From assembly GCF_056746865.1 (NCBI RefSeq), contig NZ_CM163382.1: a stretch of DNA of 64,000 nt, one strand, 5' to 3'. Of the stretch, positions 35,931 to 57,969 are shown one piece after another (the stretch's first letter is position 1; every line of letters begins with the position of its first letter). The notes beneath the pieces were generated by a model. That model was not told the DNA's origin, did no database searches, and saw only the letters and a program-made list of their open reading frames with translations. The translations under genes were made by a program, and so were the position numbers.

Positions 35931-36005
35931 ATGGCGAGGGTTTAAGCAATCGAGCGGCAGCGTACTTACCCCGCAGTCCATTAGCGGGTATACTCATGCC
36001 GCATT

Positions 36006-36080
36006 GTCCTCTTAGTTAAATGGATATAACGAGCCCCTCCTAAGGGCTAATTGCAGGTTCGATTCCTGCAGGGGACACCA
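36006..36080 (+). tRNA. argW: tRNA-Arg (anticodon CCU)
   Basis: GTCCTCTTAGTTAAATGGATATAACGAGCCCCTCCTAAGGGCTAATTGCAGGTTCGATTCCTGCAGGGGACACCA: 75 nt, cloverleaf-compatible, CCU anticodon in the loop, 3-prime CCA. Confidence 0.9.
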
Positions 36081-36521
36081 GATACCCTTCTAACAATATC
36101 TACCTTCACCCCGTAAAAGATGGGTTTGGCAGCACACTTGCCCTATATCTACTCATTTTTACTGCAACAGGTTGAAATCTCAGCACTGTCAGAAAGCGCT
36201 GATGACTAAACAGCCCTGGGCCGGGCGATGTAACCATCATACAGAATCCTGATAGCGAAATATGGCGTGACTCGATACTTCACTCTGCAATGCGTTCCTT
36301 GATGAATTCGCAGGCCCGTGATACACGGGACAAGTCGCTGAATGACGACAATGTCCTGGAAATCAGCGAACCGCGTATCCGGAGTACATTTGAGCGACTG
36401 TACCAGAACATGAATGAGGCGTTTGGATTAGGTGATTATTAGTTGGGCTAAGCATTTTTGTATTATTATTTTCCGGTTGAGGGATATGGAGATATCGACA
36501 ACAACCGGAAAAAGTTTACGT

Positions 36522-37769
36522 CTATATTGCTGAAGGTACAGGCGTTTCCATAACTATTTGCTCGCGTTTTTTACTCAGGAAGAAAATGCCAAATAGCAAC
36601 ATCAGGCAGACAATACCCGAAATTGCGAAGAAAACTGTCTGGTAGCCTGCGTGGTCAAAGAGTATCCCAGTCGGCGTTGAAAGCAGCACAATCCCAAGCG
36701 AACTGGCAATTTGAAAACCAATCAGAAAGATCGTCGACGACAGGCGCTTATCAAAGTTTGCCACGCTGTATTTGAAGACGGATATGACACAAAGTGGAAC
36801 CTCAATGGCATGTAACAGCTTCACTAATGAAATAATCCAGGGGTTAACGAACAACGCGCAGGAAAGGATACGCAACGCCATAATCACAACACCGATAAGT
36901 AATGCATTTTTTGGCCCTACCCGATTCACAAAGAAAGGAATAATCGCCATGCACAGCGCTTCGAGTACCACCTGGAATGAGTTGAGATAACCATACAGGC
37001 GCGTTCCTACATCGTGTGATTCGAATAAACCTGCATAAAAGACAGGAAAGAGTTGTTGATCAAAAATGTTATAGAAAGACCACGTCCCCACAATAAATAT
37101 GACAAAAACCCAGAAGTTTCGATCCTTGAAAACTGCGATAAAATCCTCTTTTTTTACCCCTCCCGCATCCGCCGCTACACACTGGTGACCCTTATCTTTA
37201 AAACGCATGTTGATCATCATAAATACAGCGCCAAATAGCGAGACCAGCCAGAAGTTGATATGGGGACTGATACTAAAAAATATGCCGGCAAAGAACGCGC
37301 CAATAGCATAGCCAAAAGATCCCCAGGCGCGCGCTGTTCCATATTCGAAATGAAAATTTCGCGCCATTTTTTCAGTGAAGCTGTCAAGCAAACCACATCC
37401 CGCCAGATACCCCAGGCCAAAAAAGAGCGCCCCCAGAATTAGACCTACAGAAAAATTGCTTTGCAGTAACGGTTCATAAACGTAAATCATAAACGGTCCG
37501 GTCAAGACCAGAATGAAACTCATACACCAGATGAGCGGTTTCTTCAGACCGAGTTTATCCTGAACGATGCCGTAGAACATCATAAATAGAATGCTGGTAA
37601 ACTGGTTGACCGAATAAAGTGTACCTAATTCCGTCCCTGTTAATCCTAGATGTCCTTTCAGCCAAATAGCGTATAACGACCACCACAGCGACCAGGAAAT
37701 AAAAAAGAGAAATGAGTAACTGGATGCAAAACGATAGTACGCATTTCTGAATGGAATATTCAGTGCCAT
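36522..37769 (-). CDS. cscB: Sucrose:H+ symporter (oligosaccharide:H+ symporter family, MFS) CscB
   Basis: 415-aa 12-TM ORF MALNIPFRNAYYRFASSYSFLFFISWSLWWSLYAIWLKGHLGL, LacY-like sucrose permease. Confidence 0.88.
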   Translation of the reverse strand: MALNIPFRNAYYRFASSYSFLFFISWSLWWSLYAIWLKGHLGLTGTELGTLYSVNQFTSILFMMFYGIVQDKLGLKKPLIWCMSFILVLTGPFMIYVYEPLLQSNFSVGLILGALFFGLGYLAGCGLLDSFTEKMARNFHFEYGTARAWGSFGYAIGAFFAGIFFSISPHINFWLVSLFGAVFMMINMRFKDKGHQCVAADAGGVKKEDFIAVFKDRNFWVFVIFIVGTWSFYNIFDQQLFPVFYAGLFESHDVGTRLYGYLNSFQVVLEALCMAIIPFFVNRVGPKNALLIGVVIMALRILSCALFVNPWIISLVKLLHAIEVPLCVISVFKYSVANFDKRLSSTIFLIGFQIASSLGIVLLSTPTGILFDHAGYQTVFFAISGIVCLMLLFGIFFLSKKREQIVMETPVPSAI

Positions 37770-37830
37770 AATTACCTGCCCGTCGTTAAAAAATTCATGT
37801 CCTATTTAGAGATAAGAGCGGCCTCGCCGT

Positions 37831-38754
37831 TTACTTCTCACTTTCCAGTTCTTGTCGACATGGCAGCGCTGTCATTGCCCCTTTCGCTGTTACTGCAAGC
37901 GCTCCGCAACGTTGAGCGAGATCGATAATTCGTCGCATTTCTCTCTCATCTGTAGATAATCCCGAAGAGGACAGACCTGTGAGTAACCCGGCAACGAACG
38001 CATCTCCCGCCCCAGTGCTATCGACACAATTCACAGACATTCCAGCAAAATGGTGGACTTGTCCTCGATAACAGACCACCACCCCTTCTGCACCTTTAGT
38101 CACCAACAGCATGGCGATCTCATAATCTTTTGCCAGGGCGCATATATCCCGATCGTTCTGTGTTTTTCCACTGATAAGTCGCCATTCTTCTTCCGAGAGC
38201 TTGACGACATCCGCCAGTTGTAGCGCCTGCCGCAAACACAAGCGGAGCAAATGCTCGTCTTGCCATAGATCTTCACGAATATTGGGATCGAAGCTGACAA
38301 AACCTCCGGCATGCCGGATCGCCGTCATCGCAGTAAATGCGCTGGTACGCGAAGGCTCGGCAGACAACGCAATTGAACAGAGATGTAACCATTCGCCATG
38401 TCGCCAGCAGGGCAAGTCTGTCGTCTCTAAAAAAAGATCGGCACTGGGGCGGACCATAAACGTAAATGAACGTTCTCCTTGATCGTTCAGATCGACAAGC
38501 ACCGTGGATGTCCGGTGCCATTCATCTTGCTTCAGATACGTGATATCGACACCCTCAGTTAGCAGCGTTCTTTGCATTAACGCACCAAAAGGATCATCAC
38601 CGACCCGACCTATAAACCCACTTGTTCCGCCTAATCTGGCGATTCCCACCGCAACGTTAGCTGGCGCGCCGCCAGGACAAGGCAGTAGCCGCCCGTCTGA
38701 TTCTGGCAAGAGATCTACGACCGCATCCCCTAAAACCCATACTTTGGCTGACAT
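37831..38754 (-). CDS. cscK: Fructokinase CscK (ribokinase/pfkB family)
   Basis: 307-aa ORF MSAKVWVLGDAVVDLLPE with pfkB signature (DSTGAGDAFVAGLL). Confidence 0.9.
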   Translation of the reverse strand: MSAKVWVLGDAVVDLLPESDGRLLPCPGGAPANVAVGIARLGGTSGFIGRVGDDPFGALMQRTLLTEGVDITYLKQDEWHRTSTVLVDLNDQGERSFTFMVRPSADLFLETTDLPCWRHGEWLHLCSIALSAEPSRTSAFTAMTAIRHAGGFVSFDPNIREDLWQDEHLLRLCLRQALQLADVVKLSEEEWRLISGKTQNDRDICALAKDYEIAMLLVTKGAEGVVVCYRGQVHHFAGMSVNCVDSTGAGDAFVAGLLTGLSSSGLSTDEREMRRIIDLAQRCGALAVTAKGAMTALPCRQELESEK

Positions 38755-38858
38755 TTTTTTCCCTTAAATTCATCTGACTTACGCATAGTGATAAACCTCT
38801 TTTTCGCAAAATCGTCATGGATTTACTAAAACATGCATATTCGATCACAAAACATCAT

Positions 38859-38936
38859 AGTTAACGTTAACATTTGTGATATTCATCGCATTTATGAAAG
38901 TAAGTGACTTTATTTTTATAAAAGTTAACGTTAACA
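38859..38936. promoter_or_regulatory. Divergent cscK/cscA promoter region with two identical palindromic 14-mers (candidate CscR operators)
   Basis: AGTTAACGTTAACA occurs at 38859-38872 and 38923-38936; each is itself palindromic (GTTAAC x2); LacI-family repressors bind such dyads. Confidence 0.5.
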
Positions 38937-38960
38937 ATTCACCAAATTTGCTTAACCAGG

Positions 38961-40403
38961 ATGATTAAAATGACGCAATCTCGATTGCATGCGGCGCAAA
39001 ACGCACTAGCAAAACTTCACGAGCGCCGAGGTAACACTTTCTATCCCCATTTTCACCTCGCGCCTCCTGCCGGGTGGATGAACGATCCAAACGGCCTGAT
39101 CTGGTTTAACGATCGTTATCACGCGTTTTATCAACATCACCCGATGAGCGAACACTGGGGGCCAATGCACTGGGGACATGCCACCAGCGACGATATGATC
39201 CACTGGCAGCATGAGCCTATTGCGCTAGCGCCAGGAGACGAGAATGACAAAGACGGATGTTTTTCAGGTAGTGCTGTCGATGACAATGGTGTCCTCTCAC
39301 TTATCTACACCGGACACGTCTGGCTCGATAGTGAAGGTAATGACGATGCAATTCGCGAAGTACAATGTCTGGCTACCAGTCGGGATGGTATTCATTTCGA
39401 GAAACAGGGTGTGATCCTCACTCCACCAGAAGGAATCATGCACTTCCGCGATCCTAAAGTGTGGCGTGAAGCCGACACATGGTGGATGGTAGTCGGGGCG
39501 AAAGACCCAGGCAACACGGGGCAGATCCTGCTTTATCGCGGCAGTTCATTGCGTGAATGGACTTTCGATCGCGTACTGGCCCACGCTGATGCGGGTGAAA
39601 GCTATATGTGGGAATGTCCGGACTTTTTCAGCCTTGGCGATCAGCATTATCTGATGTTTTCCCCGCAGGGAATGAATGCCGAGGGATACAGTTATCGAAA
39701 TCGCTTTCAAAGTGGCGTAATACCCGGAATGTGGTCGCCAGGACGACTTTTTGCACAATCCGGGCATTTTACTGAACTTGATAACGGGCATGACTTTTAT
39801 GCACCACAAAGCTTTGTAGCGAAGGATGGTCGGCGTATTGTTATCGGCTGGATGGATATGTGGGAATCGCCAATGCCCTCAAAACGTGAAGGCTGGGCAG
39901 GCTGCATGACGCTGGCGCGCGAGCTATCAGAGAGCAATGGCAAACTCCTACAACGCCCGGTACACGAAGCTGAGTCGTTACGCCAGCAGCATCAATCTAT
40001 CTCTCCCCGCACAATCAGCAATAAATATGTTTTGCAGGAAAACGCGCAAGCAGTTGAGATTCAGTTGCAGTGGGAGCTGAAGAACAGTGATGCCGAACAT
40101 TACGGATTACAACTCGGCACAGGAATGCGGCTGTATATTGATAACCAATCTGAGCGACTTGTTTTGTGGCGATATTACCCACACGAGAATTTAGACGGCT
40201 ACCGTAGTATTCCCCTCCCGCAGGGTGACACGCTCGCCCTAAGGATATTTATCGATACATCATCCGTGGAAGTATTTATTAACGACGGGGAAACGGTGAT
40301 GAGTAGCCGAATCTATCCGCAGCCAGAAGAACGGGAACTGTCGCTCTATGCCTCCCACGGAGTGGCTGTGCTGCAACATGGAGCACTCTGGCAACTGGGT
40401 TAA
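38961..40403 (+). CDS. cscA: Sucrose-6-phosphate hydrolase / invertase CscA (GH32)
   Basis: 480-aa ORF with GH32 motifs (WMNDPNG, RDP, EC); alternative start at ATG 38970 (MTQSRLHAA) gives 477 aa. Confidence 0.9.
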   Translation: MIKMTQSRLHAAQNALAKLHERRGNTFYPHFHLAPPAGWMNDPNGLIWFNDRYHAFYQHHPMSEHWGPMHWGHATSDDMIHWQHEPIALAPGDENDKDGCFSGSAVDDNGVLSLIYTGHVWLDSEGNDDAIREVQCLATSRDGIHFEKQGVILTPPEGIMHFRDPKVWREADTWWMVVGAKDPGNTGQILLYRGSSLREWTFDRVLAHADAGESYMWECPDFFSLGDQHYLMFSPQGMNAEGYSYRNRFQSGVIPGMWSPGRLFAQSGHFTELDNGHDFYAPQSFVAKDGRRIVIGWMDMWESPMPSKREGWAGCMTLARELSESNGKLLQRPVHEAESLRQQHQSISPRTISNKYVLQENAQAVEIQLQWELKNSDAEHYGLQLGTGMRLYIDNQSERLVLWRYYPHENLDGYRSIPLPQGDTLALRIFIDTSSVEVFINDGETVMSSRIYPQPEERELSLYASHGVAVLQHGALWQLG

Positions 40404-40410
40404 CATAATA

Positions 40411-41406
40411 TCAGGTGGAACAACGGATCAACAGCGGGCAAGGGATCCGCGTCACTCTTCCCCCTTCACGACCTTCAATAATATGCAATGCAGCTTCCCG
40501 CCCGATAATGTCATGTGGAAGCTGAATTGTGGTCAGCGGCGGTAAAAACAGATGCCCGACGCCAACCAGATTATCAAAGCCCATTACGGCGACATCCTGC
40601 GGGATACGTACCCCCTTCGCCAGGAGAACCTGATAAGCGACAAAGGCTGCGCGATCGTTACCACATATCAGAACATCAAAATCTGGTTTGCCAGATTTGA
40701 AGTGGTCATTGAGTAAACTTGCGAGATCGGTGTAGTGATCATCACCTGTTGCCATGTGAAATTGTTTCACCTCAGCCAGATCTCGTCCAGCATCACGCCA
40801 GGCCTGCTCAAATCCCTGCCGACGATACCCTGTTGCCAACGCACTTTCCGGTAGCCAGAAGCATAACGGTTGACGATAGCCCGCCGCGAGCAAATGCTGT
40901 GTTGATTCATATTGTGCAGTGTAATCATCAGGGATATAACTGGGTAACGCTGGGTCATCCGCAACACAGTTCGCCAATACAATATTTTCACCATACAGAG
41001 ACTCAGGCAGCGTGATATGTCGCAGCCCCATTGTAGTATAGATAATGCCATCCGGACGGTGGGCAAGCAGCTGACGTGCCGCGCGGGCAGCGTCATCTTC
41101 AGAAAAAATATTGATTAAAAAACTATTCCAGCCGAACTCGCTGGCGGTTTGCTCAATGGCAAGCAGAATATCAACAGAGAAAGGAGTGGTAGCCGTGTCC
41201 TGCGCCAGCACGGCGAGAGTCGACGGCTTACGTCCTTGAGCGCGCATCTTACGGGCGGAAAGATCAGGAACATAATTCAGGGTCTGGATTGCCTGCAATA
41301 CGCGGTTACGCGTTGCAGGACGCACAGATTCTGCATTATGCATCACCCGGGAGACTGTCATCATCGACACTCCCGCCAGGCGTGCGACATCCTTTAATGA
41401 AGCCAT
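40411..41406 (-). CDS. cscR: LacI-family sucrose operon repressor CscR
   Basis: ORF 40411..41604 contains MASLKDVARLAGVSMMTVSRVMHN (LacI HTH); start trimmed to ATG 41406 (331 aa). Confidence 0.88.
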   Translation of the reverse strand: MASLKDVARLAGVSMMTVSRVMHNAESVRPATRNRVLQAIQTLNYVPDLSARKMRAQGRKPSTLAVLAQDTATTPFSVDILLAIEQTASEFGWNSFLINIFSEDDAARAARQLLAHRPDGIIYTTMGLRHITLPESLYGENIVLANCVADDPALPSYIPDDYTAQYESTQHLLAAGYRQPLCFWLPESALATGYRRQGFEQAWRDAGRDLAEVKQFHMATGDDHYTDLASLLNDHFKSGKPDFDVLICGNDRAAFVAYQVLLAKGVRIPQDVAVMGFDNLVGVGHLFLPPLTTIQLPHDIIGREAALHIIEGREGGRVTRIPCPLLIRCST

Positions 41407-41636
41407 ACCCAAGCCGTTTGCCGTAAAACGGGCACTGTAGCAGAAACAGACGTCACTGGCGAGATCCAACGATATTCTCGACGCCCTATCACCCGACACG
41501 GCAATACAATAAAAAATAACAATAATTCCCGGACAATTGTACCCAATTCCGCCTCTGTTCTCGCCAACGAGTAACCATGTAGGCAAGTAGGTAAAACATG
41601 CCAACTGGCATCGCCAATCTGGAGAAGAAAATATAA

Positions 41637-41867
41637 ATATGGATCATTGTGCTGGCGCTGTATCCCGACATCAGCCCGGAAATTTTTACGATTGATATCG
41701 GTTCAAGTGCAATTGGCTGCACGATCGTTACGGACTCGCTTTTCTGGCTGGTGAAGCAATATTGCGGCGCTACGCTCAATGAAACATTTAAATACTATAC
41801 GACAGCGACATTTATCGCTTCAGTCGTCGCTCTGGCGGGCACATTCCTGCTGTCATTTATCATCTAA
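41637..41867 (+). pseudogene. dsdX: 3-prime remnant of D-serine permease gene dsdX (GntP family), truncated by the csc insertion
   Basis: Frame open from 41637 with no upstream coding continuation; hydrophobic C-terminal sequence ...[49 protein letters not shown]... matches my recollection of the DsdX C-terminus; directly upstream of dsdA. Confidence 0.65.
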
Positions 41868-41884
41868 GCGCAAAGAGACGTACT

Positions 41885-43216
41885 ATGGAAAACGCTAAAA
41901 TGAATTCGCTCATCGCCCAGTATCCGTTGGTAAAGGATCTGGTTGCTCTTCAAGAAACCACCTGGTTTAATCCTGGCACGACCTCATTGGCTGAAGGTTT
42001 ACCTTATGTTGGCCTGACCGAACAGGATGTTCAGGACGCCCATGCGCGCTTATCCCGTTTTGCACCCTATCTGGCAAAAGCATTTCCTGAAACTGCTGCT
42101 ACTGGGGGGATTATTGAATCAGAACTGGTTGCCATTCCGGCTATGCAAAAACGGCTGGAAAAGGAATATCAACAACCGATCAGCGGGCAACTGCTACTGA
42201 AAAAAGATAGCCATTTGCCCATTTCCGGCTCCATAAAAGCACGCGGCGGGATTTATGAAGTCCTGGCACATGCAGAAAAACTGGCTCTGGAAGCGGGGTT
42301 GCTGACGCTTGAAGATGACTACAGCAAACTGCTTTCTCCGGAGTTTAAACAGTTCTTTAGCCAATACAGCATTGCTGTGGGCTCAACCGGAAATCTGGGG
42401 TTATCAATCGGCATTATGAGCGCCCGCATTGGCTTTAAGGTGACAGTACATATGTCTGCTGATGCCCGGGCATGGAAAAAAGCGAAACTGCGCAGCCATG
42501 GCGTTACGGTCGTGGAATATGAGCAAGATTATGGTGTTGCAGTCGAGGAAGGACGTAAAGCAGCGCAGTCTGACCCGAACTGTTTCTTTATTGATGACGA
42601 GAATTCCCGCACGTTGTTCCTTGGGTATTCCGTCGCAGGCCAGCGTCTTAAAGCGCAATTTGCCGAGCAAGGTCGTATCGTCGATGCTGATAACCCTCTG
42701 TTTGTCTATCTGCCGTGTGGTGTTGGCGGTGGTCCTGGTGGCGTCGCATTCGGACTTAAACTGGCGTTTGGCGATCATGTTCACTGCTTTTTTGCCGAAC
42801 CAACGCACTCCCCTTGTATGTTGTTAGGCGTCCATACTGGATTACACGATCAGATTTCTGTTCAGGATATTGGTATCGACAACCTTACCGCAGCGGATGG
42901 CCTTGCAGTTGGTCGCGCATCAGGCTTTGTCGGGCGGGCAATGGAGCGTCTACTGGATGGCTTCTATACCCTTAGCGATCAAACCATGTATGACATGCTT
43001 GGCTGGCTGGCGCAGGAAGAAGGCATTCGTCTTGAACCTTCGGCACTGGCGGGTATGGCCGGGCCTCAGCGCGTGTGCGCATCAGTAAGTTACCAACAGA
43101 TGCACGGTTTCAGCGCAGAACAACTGCGTAATGCCACTCATCTGGTGTGGGCGACGGGAGGTGGAATGGTGCCGGAAGAAGAGATGGAGCAATATCTGGC
43201 AAAAGGCCGTTCATAA
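41885..43216 (+). CDS. dsdA: D-serine dehydratase (ammonia-lyase)
   Basis: 443-aa [34 protein letters not shown] with PLP-lysine region (SGSIKARGG). Confidence 0.95.
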
Positions 43217-43321: not shown

Positions 43322-44860
43322 TCACCCAACGCCTTTCGCTGTAAACGGCGGTTTCGCAAACCAAACCAATACCGTAAGTAAGATAAAAGCAATAGCCGCC
43401 ATACGGAAAATCTCATTTGCAGAAATTGAAAGTGACTGCTGAGTTATTTCATTATTAATTTCATTAAGAACCCCTGAAAGCGAACCATAGTATTTATCCA
43501 TAATTTGTGACGATGAATTAAACACGGGGTTAAATTGATCGATTGTTGCTGTCAACTGACTATGGTGTAATGATTCTCGGCGTCCCCACAGCGTCATTGT
43601 CAACGACGTACCAACTGATCCTGACAAGGTACGAAAAAAATTACTCATACTCGAGGCATTGGCAAATTTATTATCTGGCAAACCTGAAAACGAAATCGTT
43701 GTTAAGGGTAAAAAGAAACAGGCGACGGCGAATCCCTGAAAAAACTGTGGCAAAATGATGCCTGTAAAATCAATCGTTGGCATAAATGTCACAGAACGCC
43801 AGTAATAGCAAACCGCATACATTAAAAAACTAAATGTCACCAACAACCGCATATCAATTTTGTTGCCATAACGTCCTATCAAAGGTGATATTAATAGCGG
43901 CATGATGCCGATGGGCGCATAGGCAAGTCCGGCCCATATCGCATTATACCCCATCGTTTCCTGGAGTAACTGCGGCATAAGGACTATCGCCCCAGAGTAA
44001 AATAAATACGCGCATGTGATACTCACAATACCAATGGTGAAATTACGGGACTTAAACAAACTGAGATCAAGAATCGGGTTCTCTGAGGTCGACTCCCAAA
44101 TGACTAAAGAAATCAGAGAAATAACTGACACTACTGTTAGTATTATTATTGTACTCGAGTTGAACCAATCCAGGTCGCGCCCTTTATCAAGCATTATCTG
44201 CAAGCCACCAACACCGAGCACTAACAGGGTCAGTCCTGGTAGATTCATTTTGACCGGTGAAGTCTCAGTTTCTCTTCCTTTAAGTAAGGTTAAGCATAAT
44301 GTCAGAACGATAATCCCCATAGGGACATTGATTAAAAATATCCAACCCCAGCTAAAGTTATCGCAAATATAGCCGCCCAATATCGGCCCACATATCGGAG
44401 CGATAATTACGGTCATTGACCATAATGCCAAAGCAAATGTTCTTTTTTCTGGCGGATAATTCCTTAATAATAAACTCTGTGACAGTGGAATTAACGGCCC
44501 CGCCATTAACCCCTGAACGACTCTAAAAAATATCAGCACATCAAGATTGGTCGATAGGCTACACATTAAGGAAGACAGCGAAAAAAAAGTGACTGAAAGT
44601 AAAAATAATCTTAATTCGCCTATTCTTTGTGCCAGCCTGCCGGTAACAGGGATCGCAATGGCATTTGCTACGCCAAACGAAGTGATAACCCAGGTGCCTT
44701 CGTCTGTTGATGCTCCCAGAAAGCCAGATATTGTCGGTATTGCGACGTTAGAAATAGTGGAATCCAACATTTGCATAAACGTCGCTAATGACAATGCAAT
44801 AGTGACGCACCATAACGTCCCACCGGTTAATGGTGCCGGAGTTGATTTAGTGATTGCCAT
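43322..44860 (-). CDS. emrY: Multidrug efflux MFS transporter EmrY (EmrB paralog)
   Basis: 512-aa 14-TM ORF; overlaps emrK stop. Confidence 0.9.
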   Translation of the reverse strand: MAITKSTPAPLTGGTLWCVTIALSLATFMQMLDSTISNVAIPTISGFLGASTDEGTWVITSFGVANAIAIPVTGRLAQRIGELRLFLLSVTFFSLSSLMCSLSTNLDVLIFFRVVQGLMAGPLIPLSQSLLLRNYPPEKRTFALALWSMTVIIAPICGPILGGYICDNFSWGWIFLINVPMGIIVLTLCLTLLKGRETETSPVKMNLPGLTLLVLGVGGLQIMLDKGRDLDWFNSSTIIILTVVSVISLISLVIWESTSENPILDLSLFKSRNFTIGIVSITCAYLFYSGAIVLMPQLLQETMGYNAIWAGLAYAPIGIMPLLISPLIGRYGNKIDMRLLVTFSFLMYAVCYYWRSVTFMPTIDFTGIILPQFFQGFAVACFFLPLTTISFSGLPDNKFANASSMSNFFRTLSGSVGTSLTMTLWGRRESLHHSQLTATIDQFNPVFNSSSQIMDKYYGSLSGVLNEINNEITQQSLSISANEIFRMAAIAFILLTVLVWFAKPPFTAKGVG

Positions 44861-46023
44861 TAAAGTTGTCCATTATGCGAAATAATGTTGCTAATTTCTT
44901 TTTCTATCGGACTGGTATCGATAACTAAAGCCTTACTGGTATAAGCAGGCATGGACGTCACGGTTGAAGCCAGATCGGGCATCTCGGCAATGTCTTCGTT
45001 CCTGGTATCAATAGTTGCAGTCATCGATAAACCAATGCGCAAGGGATGTTCCATGAGTTCTTTTGGATCAAGAGAAACTTCAACCGGGACACGCTGAACG
45101 ATTTTGATCCAGTTCCCTGTCGCATTTTGTGCAGGTAATAAGGAGAACGCATTGCCGGTTCCCATATTGATCCCTGTCACCCGACCATGAAACACAACAT
45201 TTTCACCATAGAGATCGCTGATAATATTGACCGATTGACCAATCCGTACATCCGTGAGTTGTGTTTCTTTAAAGTTGGCATTAACCCACATTTGACGTGC
45301 CGGTACAACAGCCATTAACGATTGTCCGGGACTCACTGTTTCGCCAACCTGAACGCTTCTCTGGGCAATATAGCCGGTAACAGGACTCTTAATATCCGTA
45401 CGTTTAAGCACTAACCAGGCTTCTTTGGTTGCATCCGCCGCTTCAACGACTTGTGGCTGACGGTTTAATGGTGTGTTCATTACTAAAGCTTTATTCGCTT
45501 TATAAGCCTGAATAGCAGCATTCAATGCCGCTTTGCTACTTATTAACGTATCTTTGGTATGCTCCAGCGTTTCTTTTGAAATAACCCCCTGCTTCGCTAA
45601 AGGTACACGACGGTTATAATCTTCTAAAGATTGTTGATACTGAATACGTGCTGAAGCGACTTCGGCACTGTATTGTTTATCCTGTAAGTACAGTTTATTC
45701 GTTTGCCGAACAATATTGGCCAGATTATTTTTAGCTTTATTGAGTGCGATAGTGGCATCAGTCTTATCCAGTGAGACTAAAATGTCACCCTGTCGAACGT
45801 AGTTCGTATCTTTATGATTAACGACAGTGACGCTGCCTGAAACTTGTGCAGAAATTGGATCTGCATTCCCCGTGACATAGGCGTCATCTGTACTAATCAT
45901 GTCTTCTAATTCCATTGACCAATAGGCATAGGCACCTGAAAACGCAATAAATAAAACTACCGCCAATAAAGAAAAGTATTTTCTTCTGTTAGAATGTTTT
46001 TTATTTGAATTAATCTGTTCCAC
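44860..46023 (-). CDS. emrK: Multidrug efflux membrane-fusion protein EmrK (EmrA paralog)
   Basis: 387-aa ORF MEQINSNKKHSNRRKYFSLLAVVLFIAFSG, HlyD-family. Confidence 0.9.
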   Translation of the reverse strand: MEQINSNKKHSNRRKYFSLLAVVLFIAFSGAYAYWSMELEDMISTDDAYVTGNADPISAQVSGSVTVVNHKDTNYVRQGDILVSLDKTDATIALNKAKNNLANIVRQTNKLYLQDKQYSAEVASARIQYQQSLEDYNRRVPLAKQGVISKETLEHTKDTLISSKAALNAAIQAYKANKALVMNTPLNRQPQVVEAADATKEAWLVLKRTDIKSPVTGYIAQRSVQVGETVSPGQSLMAVVPARQMWVNANFKETQLTDVRIGQSVNIISDLYGENVVFHGRVTGINMGTGNAFSLLPAQNATGNWIKIVQRVPVEVSLDPKELMEHPLRIGLSMTATIDTRNEDIAEMPDLASTVTSMPAYTSKALVIDTSPIEKEISNIISHNGQL

Positions 46024-47057: not shown

Positions 47058-50000
47058 ATGAAGTTTTTACCCTATATTTTTCTTCTCTGTTGTGGTCTTT
47101 GGTCGACCATAAGTTTCGCAGACGAAGATTACATCGAATATCGTGGCATCAGTAGTAACAACCGTGTCACACTTGATCCACTACGTCTGAGCAACAAGGA
47201 ATTACGTTGGTTAGCGAGCAAGAAAAATCTTGTGATTGCAGTACACAAGTCCCAAACGGCTACGTTGTTGCATACCGATTCGCAGCAACGGGTTCGTGGT
47301 ATTAATGCTGATTATTTAAATCTGTTAAAAAGAGCGTTAAATATCAAATTAACACTCCGGGAATACGCCGATCATCAAAAAGCAATGGACGCGCTGGAAG
47401 AAGGTGAAGTCGATATAGTGTTATCACATTTAGTTGCTTCGCCGCCTCTTAATGATGACATTGCTGCAACCAAACCACTGATAATTACCTTTCCGGCGCT
47501 CGTCACCACCCTTCACGATTCAATGCGACCGCTTACCTCATCAAAACCAGTAAATATTGCTCGAGTAGCAAATTATCCCCCTGACGAGGTAATTCATCAA
47601 TCATTTCCAAAAGCAACAATTATCTCTTTTACAAATTTATATCAGGCATTAGCATCCGTCTCAGCCGGACAGAATGATTACTTTATTGGTAGTAACATCA
47701 TTACCAGCAGTATGATTTCCCGCTATTTCACTCACTCCTTAAATGTAGTGAAATATTATAACTCGCCGCGTCAATATAACTTTTTCTTAACCAGAAAAGA
47801 TTCAGTCGTTCTTAATGAAGTACTCAATCGGTTTGTTGATGCTTTAACAAATGAAGTTCGCTATGAAGTATCACAAAATTGGCTTGATACAGGAAACCTG
47901 GCCTTTCTGAACAAACCATTAGAACTGACTGAACATGAAAAACAGTGGATAAAGCAGCATCCCGATTTAAAGGTGCTGGAAAATCCTTACTCCCCTCCCT
48001 ATTCTATGACGGATGAAAATGGCTCGGTTCGGGGCGTTATGGGGGATATTCTTAATATTATTACCTTGCAAACAGGTTTAAATTTTTCTCCGATCACCGT
48101 TTCACACAATATCCATGCCGGAACACAGCTTAATCCCGGCGGATGGGATATATTACCTGGTGCTATTTATAGTGAAGATAGAGAAAATAATGTTTTATTT
48201 GCTGAAGCCTTCATAACAACGCCTTACGTTTTTGTCATGCAAAAAGCGCCTGACAGTGAACAAACATTAAAAAAAGGAATGAAAGTTGCCATTCCCTATT
48301 ATTATGAGCTTCATTCGCAATTAAAAGAGATGTATCCGGAGGTAGAGTGGATAAAAGTCGATAACGCCAGCGCTGCATTTCACAAGGTCAAGGAAGGTGA
48401 ACTTGATGCTCTGGTCGCGACACAGTTAAATTCGCGTTACATGATCGACCATTACTATCCTAATGAACTTTATCATTTTCTTATTCCCGGCGTTCAGAAT
48501 GCATCACTTTCGTTCGCTTTTCCTCGCGGAGAACCGGAACTTAAGGATATTATTAATAAAGCACTGAATGCAATTCCCCCAAGCGAAGTTCTGCGCCTGA
48601 CGGAAAAATGGATTAAAATGCCCAATGTGACCATTGACACATGGGATCTCTATAGCGAGCAGTTTTATATTGTTACGACATTATCCGTTTTATTAGTTGG
48701 CAGTAGCCTTTTATGGGGATTCTACCTGTTACGCTCAGTTCGTCGTCGTAAAGTCATTCAGGGTGATTTAGAAAACCAAATATCATTCCGGAAAGCACTC
48801 TCGACTCCTTACCGAATCCAACTTATGTCGTAAACTGGCAAGGTAATGTCATTAGTCACAATAGTGCATTTGAACATTATTTCACTGCTGATTACTACAA
48901 AAATGCAATGTTGCCATTAGAAAACAGTGAATCACCCTTTAAAGATGTTTTTTCTAATACGCATGAAGTCACAGCAGAGACGAAAGAAAATCGAACAATA
49001 TACACACAGGTATTTGAAATTGATAATGGCATCGAGAAAAGATGCATTAATCACTGGCATACATTATGCAATCTGCCAGCCAGCGATCATGCTGTTTATA
49101 TTTGTGGTTGGCAAGATATTACCGAGACGCGTGATTTAATTCATGCTCTCGAAGTAGAGAGAAATAAAGCGATCAATGCAACTGTCGCAAAAAGTCAGTT
49201 TCTGGCAACAATGAGTCACGAAATAAGAACACCAATAAGCTCCATTATGGGCTTCCTGGAACTTCTGTCGGGTTCTGGTCTTAGCAAGGAACAACGGGTG
49301 GAGGCGATTTCACTTGCCTACGCCACCGGACAATCACTCCTCGGCTTAATTGGTGAAATCCTTGATGTCGACAAAATTGAATCGGGTAACTATCAACTTC
49401 AACCACAATGGGTCGATATCCCTACTTTAGTCCAGAACACTTGTCACTCTTTCGGTGCGATTGCTGCAAGCAAATCCATCGCATTAAGTTGCAGCAGTAC
49501 GTTTCCTGAACATTACCTGGTTAAGATCGACCCTCAGGCGTTTAAGCAGGTCTTATCTAATTTACTGAGCAATGCTCTCAAATTTACCACCGAGGGGGCA
49601 GTGAAAATTACGACCTCCCTGGTTAACATTGATGACAACCACGCTGTAATCAAAATGACGATTATGGATTCTGGAAGTGGATTATCACAGGAAGAACAAC
49701 AACAACTGTTTAAACGCTATAGCCAAACAAGTGCAGGTCGTCAGCAAACAGGTTCTGGTTTAGGCTTAATGATCTGCAAAGAATTAATTAAAAACATGCA
49801 GGGTGATTTGTCATTAGAAAGTCATCCAGGCATAGGAACGACATTTACGATCACAATCCCGGTAGAAATTACCCAACAAGTGGCGACTGTCGAGGCAAAA
49901 GCAGAACAACCCATGACACTCCCTGAAAAGTTGAGCATATTAATCGCGGATGATCATCCGACCAACAGGCTATTACTCAAACGCCAGCTAAACCTATTAG

Positions 50001-50650
50001 GATATGATGTTGATGAAGCCACTGATGGTGTGCAAGCGCTACACAAAGTCAGTATGCAACATTATGATCTGCTTATTACTGACGTTAATATGCCGAATAT
50101 GGATGGTTTTGAGTTGACTCGCAAACTCCGTGAGCAAAATTCTTCCTTACCCATCTGGGGGCTTACAGCCAACGCACAGGCTAACGAACGTGAAAAAGGG
50201 TTAAATTGCGGCATGAACTTATGTTTGTTCAAACCGTTGACCCTGAATGTACTGAAAACACATTTAAGTCAGTTACACCAGGTTGCGCATATTGCACCTC
50301 AGTATCGCCACCTTGATATCGAGGCCCTGAAAAATAATACGGCGAACGATCTACAACTGATGCAGGAGATTCTCATGACTTTCCAGCATGAAACGCATAA
50401 AGATCTACCCGCTGCGTTTCATGCGTTAGAAGCTGGCGATAACAGAACTTTCCATCAGTGTATTCATCGCATCCACGGTGCGGCTAACATCCTGAATTTG
50501 CAAAAGTTGATTAATCTTAGCCATCAGTTAGAAATAACGCCCGTTTCAGATGACAGCAAGCCTGAAATTCTTAAGTTGCTGAACTCTGTTAAAGAACACA
50601 TTGCAGAGCTGGACCAGGAGATTGCTGTTTTCTGTCAACAAAATGACTAA
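47058..50650 (+). pseudogene. evgS: Hybrid sensor kinase evgS interrupted by a -1 frameshift (single G missing near 48803); reading frame split into 47058..48833 and 48803..50650
   Basis: First frame ends ...ISFRKALSTPYRIQLMS*; the +1 frame from 48803 reads DSLPNPTYVVNWQGNVISHNSAFEHYF... and continues through HisKA (ATMSHEIRTPISS), HATPase, receiver and HPt domains; 582 + 615 codons = 1197, the expected EvgS length. Confidence 0.75.
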
Positions 50651-50704: not shown

Positions 50705-51850
50705 TTACGATGAGAATTCCTGGCGAATTTGTTCCCCATGCTGGTCGAGCGTTGCCGCTCCCGGCATAACATGCGGGTCCGCGCAGCCGCTGATTTTTAT
50801 CGGATTACCCGGCATCATTATTCCCCCGGCTTCAATCAACATATTTCTCGCCTGAGTTTGTGGCAAATTAATGGCCTCAGCCACACTTAATAACGGCGCT
50901 ACGGGTACACCAACTTCATGTATTCTGGCTAACCAAACTTCAGCTGCCTGTGTTTTTAACGTCCGCTCAATATATTGTTTAAGAATAGCCTGGTTTTGTA
51001 CGCGTAAAATATTGCTGATAAATCGGGGATCATCAACCAGCTCCGTCAGATCCAGTGCCTGACATAACGCAGAAAAAAGCTTGTCATTACCACAACAAAT
51101 CGTAATCGGCTTATCCTGAGTATCGAAAACATCAAAAGGTGCCATGTAGGGGTGACGATTTCCCAGACGTTGTGGTGACTTCCCAGTCGCGATATATGCC
51201 ATCAGTCCGTGCTCCAGAAAACTCAGCGTGGCATCAAACATCGCTATATCGACATGCGCCCCTCGTTGGCTCTTTTCGCGGCCATAAAGTGCACTCACTA
51301 TTCCACTGAATAAATAGACACCGCCACATAAATCCGCAAGAGAGGTACCCACGCGCACTGGCGGAGCATCAGGGTATCCCGTTTCCATCATTATCCCGCT
51401 CATTGCCTGAATGATGGTATCGTAGGCAGGAGCATCTTTTAGCGGGCCGGTATGCCCAAAACCTGACGATGAAGCATATATGAGACGCGGGTTGATTTCT
51501 TGTAGCGTTTCCCATGAAAACCCCAGTTTTTCCATTGTACCTGGGCGAAAATTCTCAGCTAATACATCCGCTTGTTTAAGCATATTTATAAATATGCTTT
51601 TATCGTGATCATTCTTTAAATCAAGAACCACACTCTCTTTGCCATGATTAATAAAACTGTAATAGAGTGACTGTCCATCCACATAGGGACCAAATGTGCG
51701 GGTATCATCACCATGACCCGGCGGCTCAACTTTAATTACCCTTGCGCCCATATTACAAAGAAGTTGAGTTCCGAAAGGTCCATTAAGGACATGTGTCATA
51801 TCGATAACTAATAAGCCTTCAAACGGCCCTTTGCATTCATTATTTGTCAT
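50705..51850 (-). CDS. yfdE: Acetyl-CoA:oxalate CoA-transferase YfdE (CaiB/BaiF family III CoA-transferase)
   Basis: ORF contains MTNNECKGPFEGLLVIDMTHVLNGPFGTQLL; start trimmed to ATG 51850. Confidence 0.88.
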   Translation of the reverse strand: MTNNECKGPFEGLLVIDMTHVLNGPFGTQLLCNMGARVIKVEPPGHGDDTRTFGPYVDGQSLYYSFINHGKESVVLDLKNDHDKSIFINMLKQADVLAENFRPGTMEKLGFSWETLQEINPRLIYASSSGFGHTGPLKDAPAYDTIIQAMSGIMMETGYPDAPPVRVGTSLADLCGGVYLFSGIVSALYGREKSQRGAHVDIAMFDATLSFLEHGLMAYIATGKSPQRLGNRHPYMAPFDVFDTQDKPITICCGNDKLFSALCQALDLTELVDDPRFISNILRVQNQAILKQYIERTLKTQAAEVWLARIHEVGVPVAPLLSVAEAINLPQTQARNMLIEAGGIMMPGNPIKISGCADPHVMPGAATLDQHGEQIRQEFSS

Positions 51851-51923
51851 TTGCTTATGCCTTGAAAAAAGCCGAAGGTGAAAAGACACTTCGGCATTTA
51901 TGTAAAATCAATAACATGATTAA

Positions 51924-52868
51924 TTATGAAACCAGTCGACTGACATAAATCCACAAAGGAGCCGTGACGACAAAGCCCAGTACGCTCACAGCCAGTGACG
52001 CTGTACCAGTGCGGGTGTAGACATTAAACCGGCTGGCAATAATGATTCCGGAGAATGCCGGCGGTAAGGCGCCTGCCAGTACCATCATCTGCAAATGTTC
52101 GCTGTTCAAATGACATGCCATACCAACGAGAAGCAGCGCCAGTGGCATCAGAATTAGCTTCAGGAAGGTGTTATAAGCAATTTCGGCACTGAACTCGAAT
52201 TTATGTGCAGCCAGAGTCAACCCCGCAGCGAATACCGCCACCCCTGAGTTTGCCTTCGCAATCAGATTAAAGGTTGGGTCCCATGCTGCCGGAATTTTTA
52301 CCCCAACCAACACCAGGATCGTTGCCAGAACAGGTGCCCATACTACTGGCTCCTTTGCCGCAGAAATTAATGCGCTCAGATTACTATTCTTCTTACCATC
52401 CGCTCCTGAGGAAGGATTCAGCAAATACAGACCAATAGGAATAGTAATTGCGTTAACAATAATAGAAATAATTGCTACCACTAAACCTGTTGATACGGAA
52501 TCGCCATAAATAGGATCGAGAACTGCAAATCCCAGGAATCCGATGGTAGGTGAACCTGCAATTAATGCACATACTGCTGCTTCTGCATGAGTACGTTTAA
52601 AAAATTTGTAGCAACCAAACCAGGAGAAAAAGAAACATCCGACAATAACCACAAGTGATACAAGGGTCAGGCGAGTGTCCGCAAAAATCATTTCCCTGTT
52701 TGCCCGGGTAATAGAAACAAATAGGGCCGCAGGAAGAGCGTAGTTTAATACCAGTTTATTAAATGCCCGGGCTTGATCTTCTGAAAAAGTTTCTCGTCTG
52801 CCGCTAAAATAACCCAACAGCATGATTACGATAATAGGCAATAAATCGCCAATAAAAAATGTTAGCAT
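51924..52868 (-). CDS. yfdV: AEC-family (auxin efflux carrier-like) transporter YfdV
   Basis: 314-aa polytopic membrane [26 protein letters not shown]. Confidence 0.85.
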
Positions 52869-52936
52869 AATAGTATTTCCGATAAGGGTCCCCTCACCAT
52901 CGATAATGAGTTGGCAAGAGGAGACGATGTCAGTAT

Positions 52937-54631
52937 TTAATTACCAGCGACTTGTTTTGGGTTAAGTTTGGTAATATGGCCACTTTCAGTTCCTGCTGCA
53001 GGGTCGATGACCACATTAATAATGGTCGGTTTGCGCGACTGAATACCGGTGGTTAAAGCATGACGAAGTTCATCTGTCGTAGTGACGTTATAGCCAACGC
53101 CACGAAACGCATCCATTAATTTGTCATACCTTGCATGGTGCAATAGATCTGTTGGTGATGGTGCACCAGCGCCACTGAGATCAACACCGTCTCCTCTGTA
53201 GATGCCGCCATTATTAAAAATAACGATCGTCACCGGCAGGTTATATCGACAAATCGTTTCAATCTCCATCCCACTGAAGCCAAAAGCACTATCACCTTCA
53301 ATGGCGACAACCGGAGAACCAGAGGTCACGCTAGCACCGATGGCATAGCCCATACCGATGCCCATGACACCCCAGGTACCACAATCCAGACGGCGACGTG
53401 GTTTATACATATCAATAATATTTCGTGCATTATCCAGGGTATTTGCACCTTCATTAACTAAATAAATATCCTGGTTCTCGCGCAATACATCGCGCACAGC
53501 ACTTAATGCATTAAAGTAATTTAATGGTTGAGTATCTGTACTTAATTTTTCATGCATTTTTTGTGCATTTTGCTGCTTGTGGATATTTAAAATATCGCGC
53601 CATACCAGTGGAGTCGTAAATGTGTTTTGTTTCAGTTCTGCCAGCATACCTTGCATACTGGATGCAATATCGCCAACGACTGGCACAGCAATGGGGCGGT
53701 TGCTGTCAATTTCCTGCGGTTCAATATCCAGTTGAATAAACTGTGTATCTGCCGCCCATCCTTTTTTACCGTGTGCCAGTAACCAATTCAGTCGTGCACC
53801 AACAAGCATGACAACGTCAGCATTTGCCAGGGCAAACGAACGCGCAGTTGCCGCAGAAAGTGGATGTGTATCTTCGAGGATCCCTTTCGCCATAGACATT
53901 GGCAGGAATGGAATCTGGGCACTTTCAATAAATTCACGAAGCTGTTCATCCGCTTGTGAATACGCCGCGCCTTTGCCAAGGATAACTAATGGTCGTTCAG
54001 CTTTTGCTAAAAGCGAAATTGCGCTAGCGACTGACTTCGGGCATGGCAATAATGCTGGCGACGGATTTTCAACTTTTACAATCGTGGTTAACGCTTCGTC
54101 TTTTTCCATCGTCGCGGCCAGGACATTTGCAGGCAAATCAAGATAAACTCCGCCAGGGCGACCCGATACTGAGACCCGGATAGCGCGTGCCAATGCAATG
54201 CCAAGATCCTGCGGCTGATTAACGCGAAATGCTGCTTTGGCATACGGTTTTGCCGCATTCATTTGGTCCAGCTCTTCATAATCACCTTGCTGTAGGTCGA
54301 CGATCGCGCGGTCGCTGGAGCCGCTAATCATGATCATCGGAAAACCATTTACCGTTGCGTTGGCCAATGCGGTCAAACCATTGAGGAATCCTGGCGCAGA
54401 AACTGTCAGGCAGATCCCCGGTTTTTGGGTAAGAAAACCGCTTGCCGCAGCGGCATAGCCTGCCGACTGCTCATGACGAAAACCAATATAACGAATGCCT
54501 TCCGCCTGGGCATGGCGTGCCATATCCGTCACAGGAATACCTACAACACCATAAATAGTGTCAATATCATTCTGTTTTAATGCTTCAACGATGATATGCA
54601 TACCATCTGTCATTTGAAGTTGATCTGACAT
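52937..54631 (-). CDS. oxc: Oxalyl-CoA decarboxylase (ThDP-dependent)
   Basis: 564-aa ORF with ThDP-binding region ([31 protein letters not shown]). Confidence 0.92.
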
Positions 54632-54684
54632 GATTAATAACCTCGAAATTTTTATAAATTGGGAGCCAGAAGCCCCCGTTAATA

Positions 54685-55935
54685 TCAGATGGCGTGGTTT
54701 TGCTTCATTGCAGCAATTTCATCGTCGCTATAACCCAGCTCCTGCAATACAGCAGCGGTATGTTCACCTAATAGCGGCGCAGCTTTAATATCCGGCGTAA
54801 AGGCAGAGAATTTCATTGGACAACCAACTGTCAGATATTTTCCACGCAACGGTTGTTCCACTTCAACAACACTGCCACTTTGGCGCAAAGAGGGATCAAG
54901 TGAAATTTCTTTCATACTTAAAACCGGTGCACAAGGAATATCAAACTGAGTCAAATAGGCCACCGCTTCATGTTTATCAATAGTGACAGTGTATTTTTCG
55001 ATTTCAGCAAAAATATCGAAAATATGTGGCTGTCGGGCATGGGCTGTACTGTATGCCGGATCGGTAATCCAATCTGGTTTGCCGATGGCTTTACAGGTGT
55101 TTTCCCAGTTTTGCTCCTGAATAGTGAAATAAATATAGGCGTTAGGATCGGTTTCCCAGCCTTTACATTTCAGGATCCAGCCAGGCTGACCGCCACCACC
55201 CGCATTACCTCCGCGGGGAACTGCATCACCAAATGTGCCATTCGGATACTGCGGGTATTCTTCCAGATAACCCAATTTATCGAGACGCTGCTGGTCGCGT
55301 AATTTCACGCGGCAAAGGTTCAATACGGCATCCTGCATTGACATGGTGACTCGTTGCCCACGCCCCGTTTTTTCACGATGCAGCAAAGCAGCAAGTAAAC
55401 CGATCAGTAAATGCATTCCGGTGTTGCTGTCACCCAACGCTGCAGCGCTTACCAGCGGCGGACCGTCCCAAAAACCCGTAGTGGATGCCGCGCCACCCGC
55501 TGCCTGAGCAACGTTTTCATAGGCTTTTACATTCACATAAGGCGAACACTCATCAAACCCTTTGATCGAACCAAAAATCAGACGTGGATTGATTTCTTGA
55601 ATATGCTCCCAGGTGAAGCCCATGTGATCAATAGCCCCAGGATGAAAGTTCTCGACTAAGATATCAGCTTCGCGGATCAGCTTTTCCATTACCTCTTTGC
55701 CTTCCGCTGTTTTGGTATTTAATTCAATAGAACGTTTGTTACTGTTAAGCATGGTGAAGTAAAGCGCATCGATATCAGGAATATCTCGCAGCTGGTGACG
55801 CGTTACGTCACCAACGCCGGGACGTTCAATTTTAATGACGTCAGCGCCAAACCAGGCCAGCATTTGAGTACAAGATGGGCCAGATTGCACACCGGTGAAA
55901 TCGAGAACTTTAATTCCTTGAAGTGGAGTTGACAT
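54685..55935 (-). CDS. frc: Formyl-CoA:oxalate CoA-transferase
   Basis: 416-aa [46 protein letters not shown], family III CoA-transferase. Confidence 0.92.
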
Positions 55936-56185
55936 AGCAATACCTATTAGTTAATTAAATATGTGTTAATTTAGCGTTTATTTAAGACATAACGCCTCTA
56001 TAAATAATCCGCAAAATATCGTCGTAGCTGCACTCGATATTTTTAAATTCCTGTATCAAGTACTGAAAATCATTTCATCGCTACTTCCAATTCCTTTCTG
56101 CATGGTAAGTAGTGAGGACGAAAAGAAGAATATGATAAATATTGGTTCGCGGTAATCAGAGAGAGCCGCGACATTTGTGATGTTA

Positions 56186-56203
56186 TTCTTACAACTGTAA
56201 GAA
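56186..56203. promoter_or_regulatory. Perfect 18-bp palindrome TTCTTACAACTGTAAGAA upstream of frc (EvgA-box-like)
   Basis: Exact inverted repeat TTCTTACA-AC-TGTAAGAA about 250 bp upstream of the frc start. Confidence 0.55.
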
Positions 56204-56446
56204 GCGCCGGTGATTTACAAGTAAGGGTATGATTACGCTTTTTAAAGCGTACCATAAAACATAACATAATAAATGATTTGTGATGACACGGGATTATTGC
56301 GGTTTACTTTGAGGAAGATAAAATGCGAGTTTATAGAACCGCGAGCGCCAAATAATTTTATGACCACAATCTGTCGTATTGTGGTCATAAAAAATTGTCG
56401 GCTGGAGGGAGTTAAATCCTTTACCTCAATATACTGCCTGTCAGCA

Positions 56447-57079
56447 TTAGTTCACAAACAGTGCTTCGCTATCGACGATGATTCCATCTTCCGCACCTTT
56501 AAGCGCCAGGTTTGCCTCGTAGTATTGCTTTTTATCAAGCAGTTTCTGCGCATCAGCAAGTGCATTACGAGTCTGTTTGAGCGGCATCAGATATTGGTTT
56601 TCCATTACGCCAACACCGGCCAGGCGAAGCTCTTCCATTGCGCCCTTTTTATCCCCTTTCGCCATTTTTTCGTTGGCAATTTTTATCGCGGCTTCTTTTT
56701 CGGGTGTCGCTACATAACTCTCAGAAATTCCGATAGATGCATTAATGACAATATATTGGTCATCATTGACATTGGTTTTTTTTCCTGGCTTAGCGAACTT
56801 TGCCCATTCGGTACTGTCATCTGACAACAAAGCTGAAGCTTCATTGGTCAGTTCTTTTGCCTTTTCCGGATCGCCATGAAACAGAGCCAGGCGCGCTACC
56901 TGCACGTCACGCATCGCATATAAACCTTGTTCAGAGATACGCTCTGCTGCTGCCGTTTTCTGGGTTTGCTGAACTTGCTGAGTTTGCTGTTGTGCCGCTA
57001 CCGGTGCATTATCAGCCGCCCATACAGTTGAAGATGCCAGAATTGCTGTGACCATCGTAGCCATAATTAAACGTTTCAT
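56447..57079 (-). CDS. yfdX: YfdX-family periplasmic protein
   Basis: 210-aa ORF with signal peptide [21 protein letters not shown]; first gene of the yfdX-frc-oxc-yfdV-yfdE cluster. Confidence 0.88.
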
Positions 57080-57726: not shown

Positions 57727-57969
57727 CTACCGCCTGCCATAGCCCACCATAAAGCGAATCATCAAGCCACAAGCCGGGGCAAGAAATATAAATATCCCCG
57801 TCACCAGTTCATTACCGCCAGTTAACCACATGGTGAAGTAATAAATGAGTGCAGCGAGGATCACCATGCCGAAGAAAGAAGAGACCGCCGATACCACGTT
57901 CAGGACCTGACCAATGTAGCCGCTTACGCAGACAATACACAGGGCGAGAAACATCCATAAATAAATCAT
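57727..57969 (-). CDS. yfdY: Small inner-membrane protein YfdY
   Basis: 80-aa two-TM ORF MIYLWMFLALCIVCVSGYIGQVLNVV. Confidence 0.75.
   Translation of the reverse strand: MIYLWMFLALCIVCVSGYIGQVLNVVSAVSSFFGMVILAALIYYFTMWLTGGNELVTGIFIFLAPACGLMIRFMVGYGRR

Follow-up and report, generated by a model that had tools for sequence, protein, structure and literature searches.

The evgS gene in the window (the whole 64,000-nucleotide stretch of DNA analysed here, from contig NZ_CM163382.1 of NCBI RefSeq assembly GCF_056746865.1) lacks one G where codons 582 and 583 meet, and its reading frame ends nine codons later, ahead of every kinase domain. We consider this deletion to be probably (at a rough probability of 0.7) a strain-private frameshift null allele of evgS. 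In the ORF listing and its translation, the gene appears as two ORFs of 591 and 580 codons (Table 1). The first ends in ISFRKALS followed by TPYRIQLMS and a stop; these final nine codons are unrelated to EvgS. The other frame is open from 48767 to 50650 and reads ...DSLPNPTYVVNWQGNVISHNSAFEHYF..., its first canonical start being the ATG at 48908. Against NF007420, the NCBIfam EvgS equivalog, the 5' ORF matched profile positions 1-583 (1404 bits, E = 0) and the 3' ORF matched positions 618-1197 (1371 bits, E = 0); neither alone reaches the curated whole-protein cutoff of 1995 bits. Because the two matches fall at these positions of one profile, the pair represents a split evgS and not two ORFs that lie together by chance.

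Table 1. Coordinates of the parts of the split evgS gene and of its neighbours in the window.
Feature	Position	Strand	Basis or remark
emrK-emrY efflux operon, divergent from evgAS, intact	43322..46023	-	identical to 118UI
evgA, response regulator, intact, 204 aa	46439..47053	+	DNA identical to 118UI evgA (WP_000991370.1)
evgS 5' ORF	47058..48833	+	582 native codons, 9 out-of-frame codons and TAA
evgS deletion site	48802..48803	+	codon 582/583; G here, GG in relatives
Frameshifted tail, 9 codons and premature TAA (48831-48833)	48804..48833	+	translation
74-nt stretch from premature stop to first canonical native-frame start	48834..48907	+	without Shine-Dalgarno sequence
evgS 3' ORF, EvgS residues 618-1197	48908..50650	+	NF007420, Pfam; probably untranslated
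yfdE-yfdV-oxc-frc-yfdX cluster, 3' of evgS, intact	50705..57079	-	118UI annotation, no differences

When evgS was aligned with its counterpart in E. coli 118UI (NZ_CP032515.1), one difference emerged, CTCTCGGACTCC in 118UI versus CTCTC-GACTCC in the window; of the GG pair at 48802/48803, one base is missing. When the G was put back, the gene encoded a 1197-aa protein identical to 118UI EvgS (WP_001323380.1). Relative to the intact orthologues, the lesion is a 1-bp indel, not a multiple of three, with a stop nine codons on. A sequence-only reading of the window had described an evgS frame ending at 48833 after 591 codons, a frame shift near 48803, and a restored frame running to 50650 for a total of 1197 aa. 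The ORF listing and translation bear out the first of these points, the alignment with 118UI places the lost base where the second had put it, and the identity of the repaired protein with its 118UI counterpart agrees with the third.

The 5' ORF retains the signal peptide (residues 3-21), two SBP_bac_3 (Venus-flytrap) domains (residues 64-276 and 306-520, by Pfam), and the membrane helix (residues 536-558, by hydropathy), past which its product has a 24-residue cytoplasmic stub. The HisKA (711-777), HATPase_c (825-937), receiver (961-1070) and HPt (1104-1185) domains recognized by Pfam all lie 3' of the stop at 48833. The residues H721, D1009 and H1137 are present in the repaired EvgS sequence, and their codons (49217, 50081 and 50465, respectively) are all downstream of the break. 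The break itself, at codon 583, falls in the cap at the N-terminus of the cytoplasmic PAS-like region; the 3' ORF encodes the C-terminal part of that region. N573 and S584, both sites of activating mutations, flank codon 583, which belongs to the helical cap that opens the PAS-like linker (Johnson et al. 2014, PMC4283999). The sequence-only reading had placed the truncation past the periplasmic and transmembrane region, which is correct, the break being 24 residues beyond the membrane helix. It had further held that the strain encodes the sensing domain only and no phosphorelay; this stands for the sensor polypeptide, but the 3' part of the gene is still encoded, as the 580-codon ORF.

The surroundings of the lesion are intact. 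Between 42922 and 48801, the alignment of the window with 118UI contains zero differences, and evgA, which had been read as intact, is indeed identical to that of 118UI in its DNA. The order of the orthologous locus is likewise that of 118UI, with evgA directly upstream of evgS, emrKY (which we take to be a target of EvgA) divergent, and yfdE-yfdX downstream, the DNA being identical apart from the gap. A sucrose (csc) cluster encoding a transporter, a kinase, CscA and a LacI-type regulator adjoins dsdA at about 36500-43200; the identical csc/dsdA region of 118UI is annotated with a dsdX remnant only ('missing N-terminus').

Comparison with related evgS genes had been proposed as a check on the deletion; it found GG at the site in the relatives among the matches listed and left the deletion private to the window. 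Megablast with the gene matched evgS in 5,404 of 5,426 complete E. coli genomes, and the best matches span 3,594 bases versus 3,593 in the query. A 71-nt query laid over the deleted site had no exact match in the same 5,426 genomes. It hit 448 records, all at 98.6% identity or less, and among the matches listed the spans are 72 bases, with the extra G. Close relatives (125 records with at least 99% identity across evgS) have GG at the site among the matches listed, as do all five further public assemblies that encode an identical 580-aa 3' ORF. An exact-product look-up showed the 591-aa product to be absent from the public gene index. The deleted 25-mer occurred in no metagenome contig, a search with almost no power since the intact 26-mer occurred in only two. 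In the literature on evgS frameshifts in natural isolates, we found none specific to this lineage.

A single missing base also invites the explanation that the consensus is wrong, through sequencing or assembly error, and that the strain itself carries GG and, with it, an intact EvgS of 1197 aa; we regard this as unlikely, though it is by some distance the strongest competitor of a real mutation. The deletion is a singleton by the comparisons above, and an independent occurrence was not found in the complete genomes, the gene index or the metagenome contigs. A lone 1-bp indel in an otherwise perfect gene has the look of a consensus error too. Many 'pseudogenes' that owe their status to a single-nucleotide frameshift are reported to be sequencing artefacts, and such frameshifts are a known class of artefact in finished genomes (PMC2617782; PMC11017572). 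Apart from the gap, evgS is 100% identical to the intact allele and has no secondary decay, as would befit an error; a very recent real mutation, however, would show no secondary decay either. Other features of the window weigh against error. Over about 62 kb, the window departs from 118UI in the evgS deletion, one genuine SNP and two insertion sequences; the only other mismatches are of two kinds and arise at alignment edges, one kind at the argW attachment site (36010) and the other at the IS2 boundary (19614, 19616). With no other indel over that length, all homopolymer runs included, the assembly does not appear indel-prone, and the error process typical of a sequencing platform is not visible. 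The site of the deletion is a GG pair, neither a long run nor a known methylation motif. The strain has other real disruptions, the IS2 and IS200-family insertions, both with the expected element ends; because they are absent from 118UI, private gene disruptions do occur in the lineage. If the deletion were nonetheless a base-calling error, its significance would be confined to a correction of the annotation. The appearance of such errors can be seen in a Logan contig (SRR30896132) bearing the same allele, in which evgS is in three ORFs owing to indels at 2360 and 2991; these sit in A runs of seven and five bases, two errors in 6 kb and a typical homopolymer signature. That contig has A-run errors, whereas the window has a GG-pair deletion and no homopolymer indels.

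Even with a real deletion, the split gene might continue to signal, either through -1 slippage of ribosomes or RNA polymerase yielding full-length EvgS or through a soluble kinase started at M618 that would phosphorylate EvgA free of acid control. We judge this very improbable. It draws some plausibility from the 3' ORF, which is intact and identical to that of a functional allele, from the native evgS start, which likewise has a weak Shine-Dalgarno sequence, and from the finding that cytoplasmic EvgS (residues 553-1193), produced alone from a plasmid, is constitutively active (PMC5573083; PMC8174306). Restoration of the frame would need a -1 shift between 48767 and 48830. No X_XXY_YYZ heptamer was found in 48760-48833 (the last stop of the target frame being at 48764 and the premature stop at 48833), nor any homopolymer of five or more in 48700-48900, and on the absence of both we reject rescue by recoding. 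No relative among the matches listed shares the frameshift, and neither do the five same-allele assemblies; with no conserved frameshift and no slippery heptamer, a programmed frameshift or functional split gene was set aside. Re-initiation at M618 also appears unlikely: 74 nt separate its ATG from the stop, and no Shine-Dalgarno sequence precedes it, the anti-SD duplex being +0.6 kcal/mol compared with a window background of -2.0 +/- 2.3. Rho tends to terminate transcription where the mRNA past a premature stop goes untranslated. A fragment beginning at 618 would, moreover, have a PAS-like region without its N-terminal helix and its first strands. Truncation of the N-terminal PAS helix weakens the dimer in soluble EvgS (PMC5573083; PMC8174306), and soluble EvgS with a PAS region weakened by S600I loses all activity (PMC5573083). 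The absence of a slippery site, the absence of a Shine-Dalgarno sequence at M618 and the truncated PAS-like region together make rescue unlikely. Fainter still is the prospect of a two-piece system, in which a membrane sensor fragment coexists with a soluble kinase-receiver-HPt protein from M618 that phosphorylates EvgA free of acid or redox control; if it existed, acid-resistance and efflux genes would be expressed constitutively, at a low level, in a lineage of clinical type.

We infer that the living strain carries the deletion and the phenotype that follows from it; for such an evgS null, the expected course of events is as follows. Loss of the G at codon 583 would cause translation to stop nine codons later, leaving a 591-aa membrane-anchored fragment that would consist of the periplasmic sensor, the membrane helix and a short cytoplasmic stub. 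Since this fragment is without H721, the ATPase, the D1009 receiver and the H1137 HPt, it should be unable to phosphorylate the intact EvgA. H721 is needed for EvgS activity, and an evgS-deleted strain is unresponsive to low pH; strains lacking evgS or evgAS lose inducible acid resistance in exponential phase (PMC4283999). On the strength of the H721 requirement and these loss phenotypes, mildly acidic pH should not induce the EvgA regulon in the window strain. The uncoupling of that regulon from acid sensing, predicted by the sequence-only reading, agrees with the same data. Growing cells would no longer turn on the EvgA regulon when exposed to mild acid, but acid resistance in stationary phase, which depends on RpoS, would be expected to stay. 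The regulon in question would include emrKY and yfdX-frc-oxc-yfdV-yfdE nearby, and ydeP, safA-ydeO and gadE elsewhere; the yfdX promoter is a direct target of EvgA-P and serves as a reporter (Roggiani et al. 2017, PMC5706723).

If the deletion is real, growing cells would be without mild-acid induction of YdeO/GadE glutamate-dependent acid resistance, YdeP, EmrKY, MdtEF and SafA-PhoQ cross-talk. The closest complete genomes of the lineage include ST69-labelled and human urinary isolates, and a real deletion would give that lineage a natural evgS-null member, useful in strain-level phenotype prediction. It would also add one more case of natural variability in EvgS signalling, with the understanding of the system itself unchanged.

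Natural loss of evgS is not confined to the window. In 22 of the 5,426 complete genomes there was no evgS match, and in 11 more coverage was below 80%; at least 33 genomes (0.6%) are therefore without a full-length match, a lower bound that captures large deletions only. Loss of evgS recurs naturally, and if the base call is right, the new allele adds one loss-of-function case to a dispensable, variable gene. The enteroaggregative strain EAEC 042 is, like the window strain, a natural isolate without functional EvgS, but it lost both evgA and evgS by a multi-kilobase deletion, whereas the window keeps evgA and misses one base (PMC4283999). EAEC 042 survives exponential-phase acid shock poorly, keeps some stationary-phase resistance, and regains inducible resistance when supplied with evgAS on a plasmid (PMC4283999). 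In UPEC NA114, EvgS has a 21-residue deletion (656-676) in the PAS-like region that is predicted to be inactivating, as is the lesion in the window; the NA114 lesion is in frame and the kinase domains are still made, whereas the window allele terminates before any of them (PMC4283999). In Shigella dysenteriae Sd197, evgS is a pseudogene in several fragments (Touchon et al. 2009, Table S3) and resembles the window in being broken, but Sd197 has multiple fragments, a broken evgA as well and genome-wide decay, whereas the window has a single fresh lesion and an intact evgA.

The evgS::IS1 gene in GCA_964056295.1 is the same allele as in the window and has the same 580-aa 3' ORF. Its disruption is an independent event, an IS1 insertion with GG present at the position of 48802/3, in contrast to the 1-bp deletion of the window. 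That IS1 lies at about 2223-2990 of CAXKSL010000001.1, at roughly codons 614-617, about 95 bp downstream of the window's deletion site, and the gene caller gave a 617-aa product for the 5' part of evgS.

Two further comparisons concern EvgS proteins with altered signalling. The EvgS alleles of phylogroup B2 are mostly non-responsive to acid while evgA is invariant, a comparable natural loss of mild-acid induction (PMC5706723). Those alleles encode intact proteins that are under purifying selection and probably sense something else, whereas the window allele encodes no kinase (PMC5706723). The engineered EvgS-Cyt (553-1193) and EvgS579-1197 resemble the 3' ORF in that each consists of the cytoplasmic portion apart from the periplasmic and membrane parts (PMC5573083; PMC8174306); they have engineered starts and retain the PAS region in full or for the most part, whereas the 3' ORF of the window starts at 618 and is without a ribosome-binding site.

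A second two-component sensor gene in the window is knocked out about 13 kb from evgS. This gene, ypdA (61349-63758), encodes the sensor kinase of the YpdA/YpdB system and is interrupted by an IS200-family element of about 709 bp (61941-62649), the transposase ORF of which occupies 62048-62557 on the minus strand (NF033573, E = 2.6e-43). The ypdA::IS200 junction occurred in none of the 5,426 complete E. coli genomes, and no record of the ypdA'-IS200 fusion ORF was found. The IS2 element (1,331 bp, 18286-19616; NF006928, NF006918) is flanked by a 5-bp CAAAG target duplication and is absent from 118UI. It lies at the start codon of a yfcO-type fimbrial adhesin gene and overlaps the last codons of an upstream fimbrial subunit gene; other close relatives also cover only about 95% of the query. 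The sole genuine substitution relative to 118UI, at 57787, changes residue 61 of YfdY, which is I here and M in 118UI. Finally, the site at argW (tRNA-Arg, 36005-36080) is empty in the window, whereas 118UI carries, between yfdC and the tRNA, a prophage of about 38 kb with genes from integrase to tail; the 26-bp alignment overlap at 36005-36030 looks like the attachment core.
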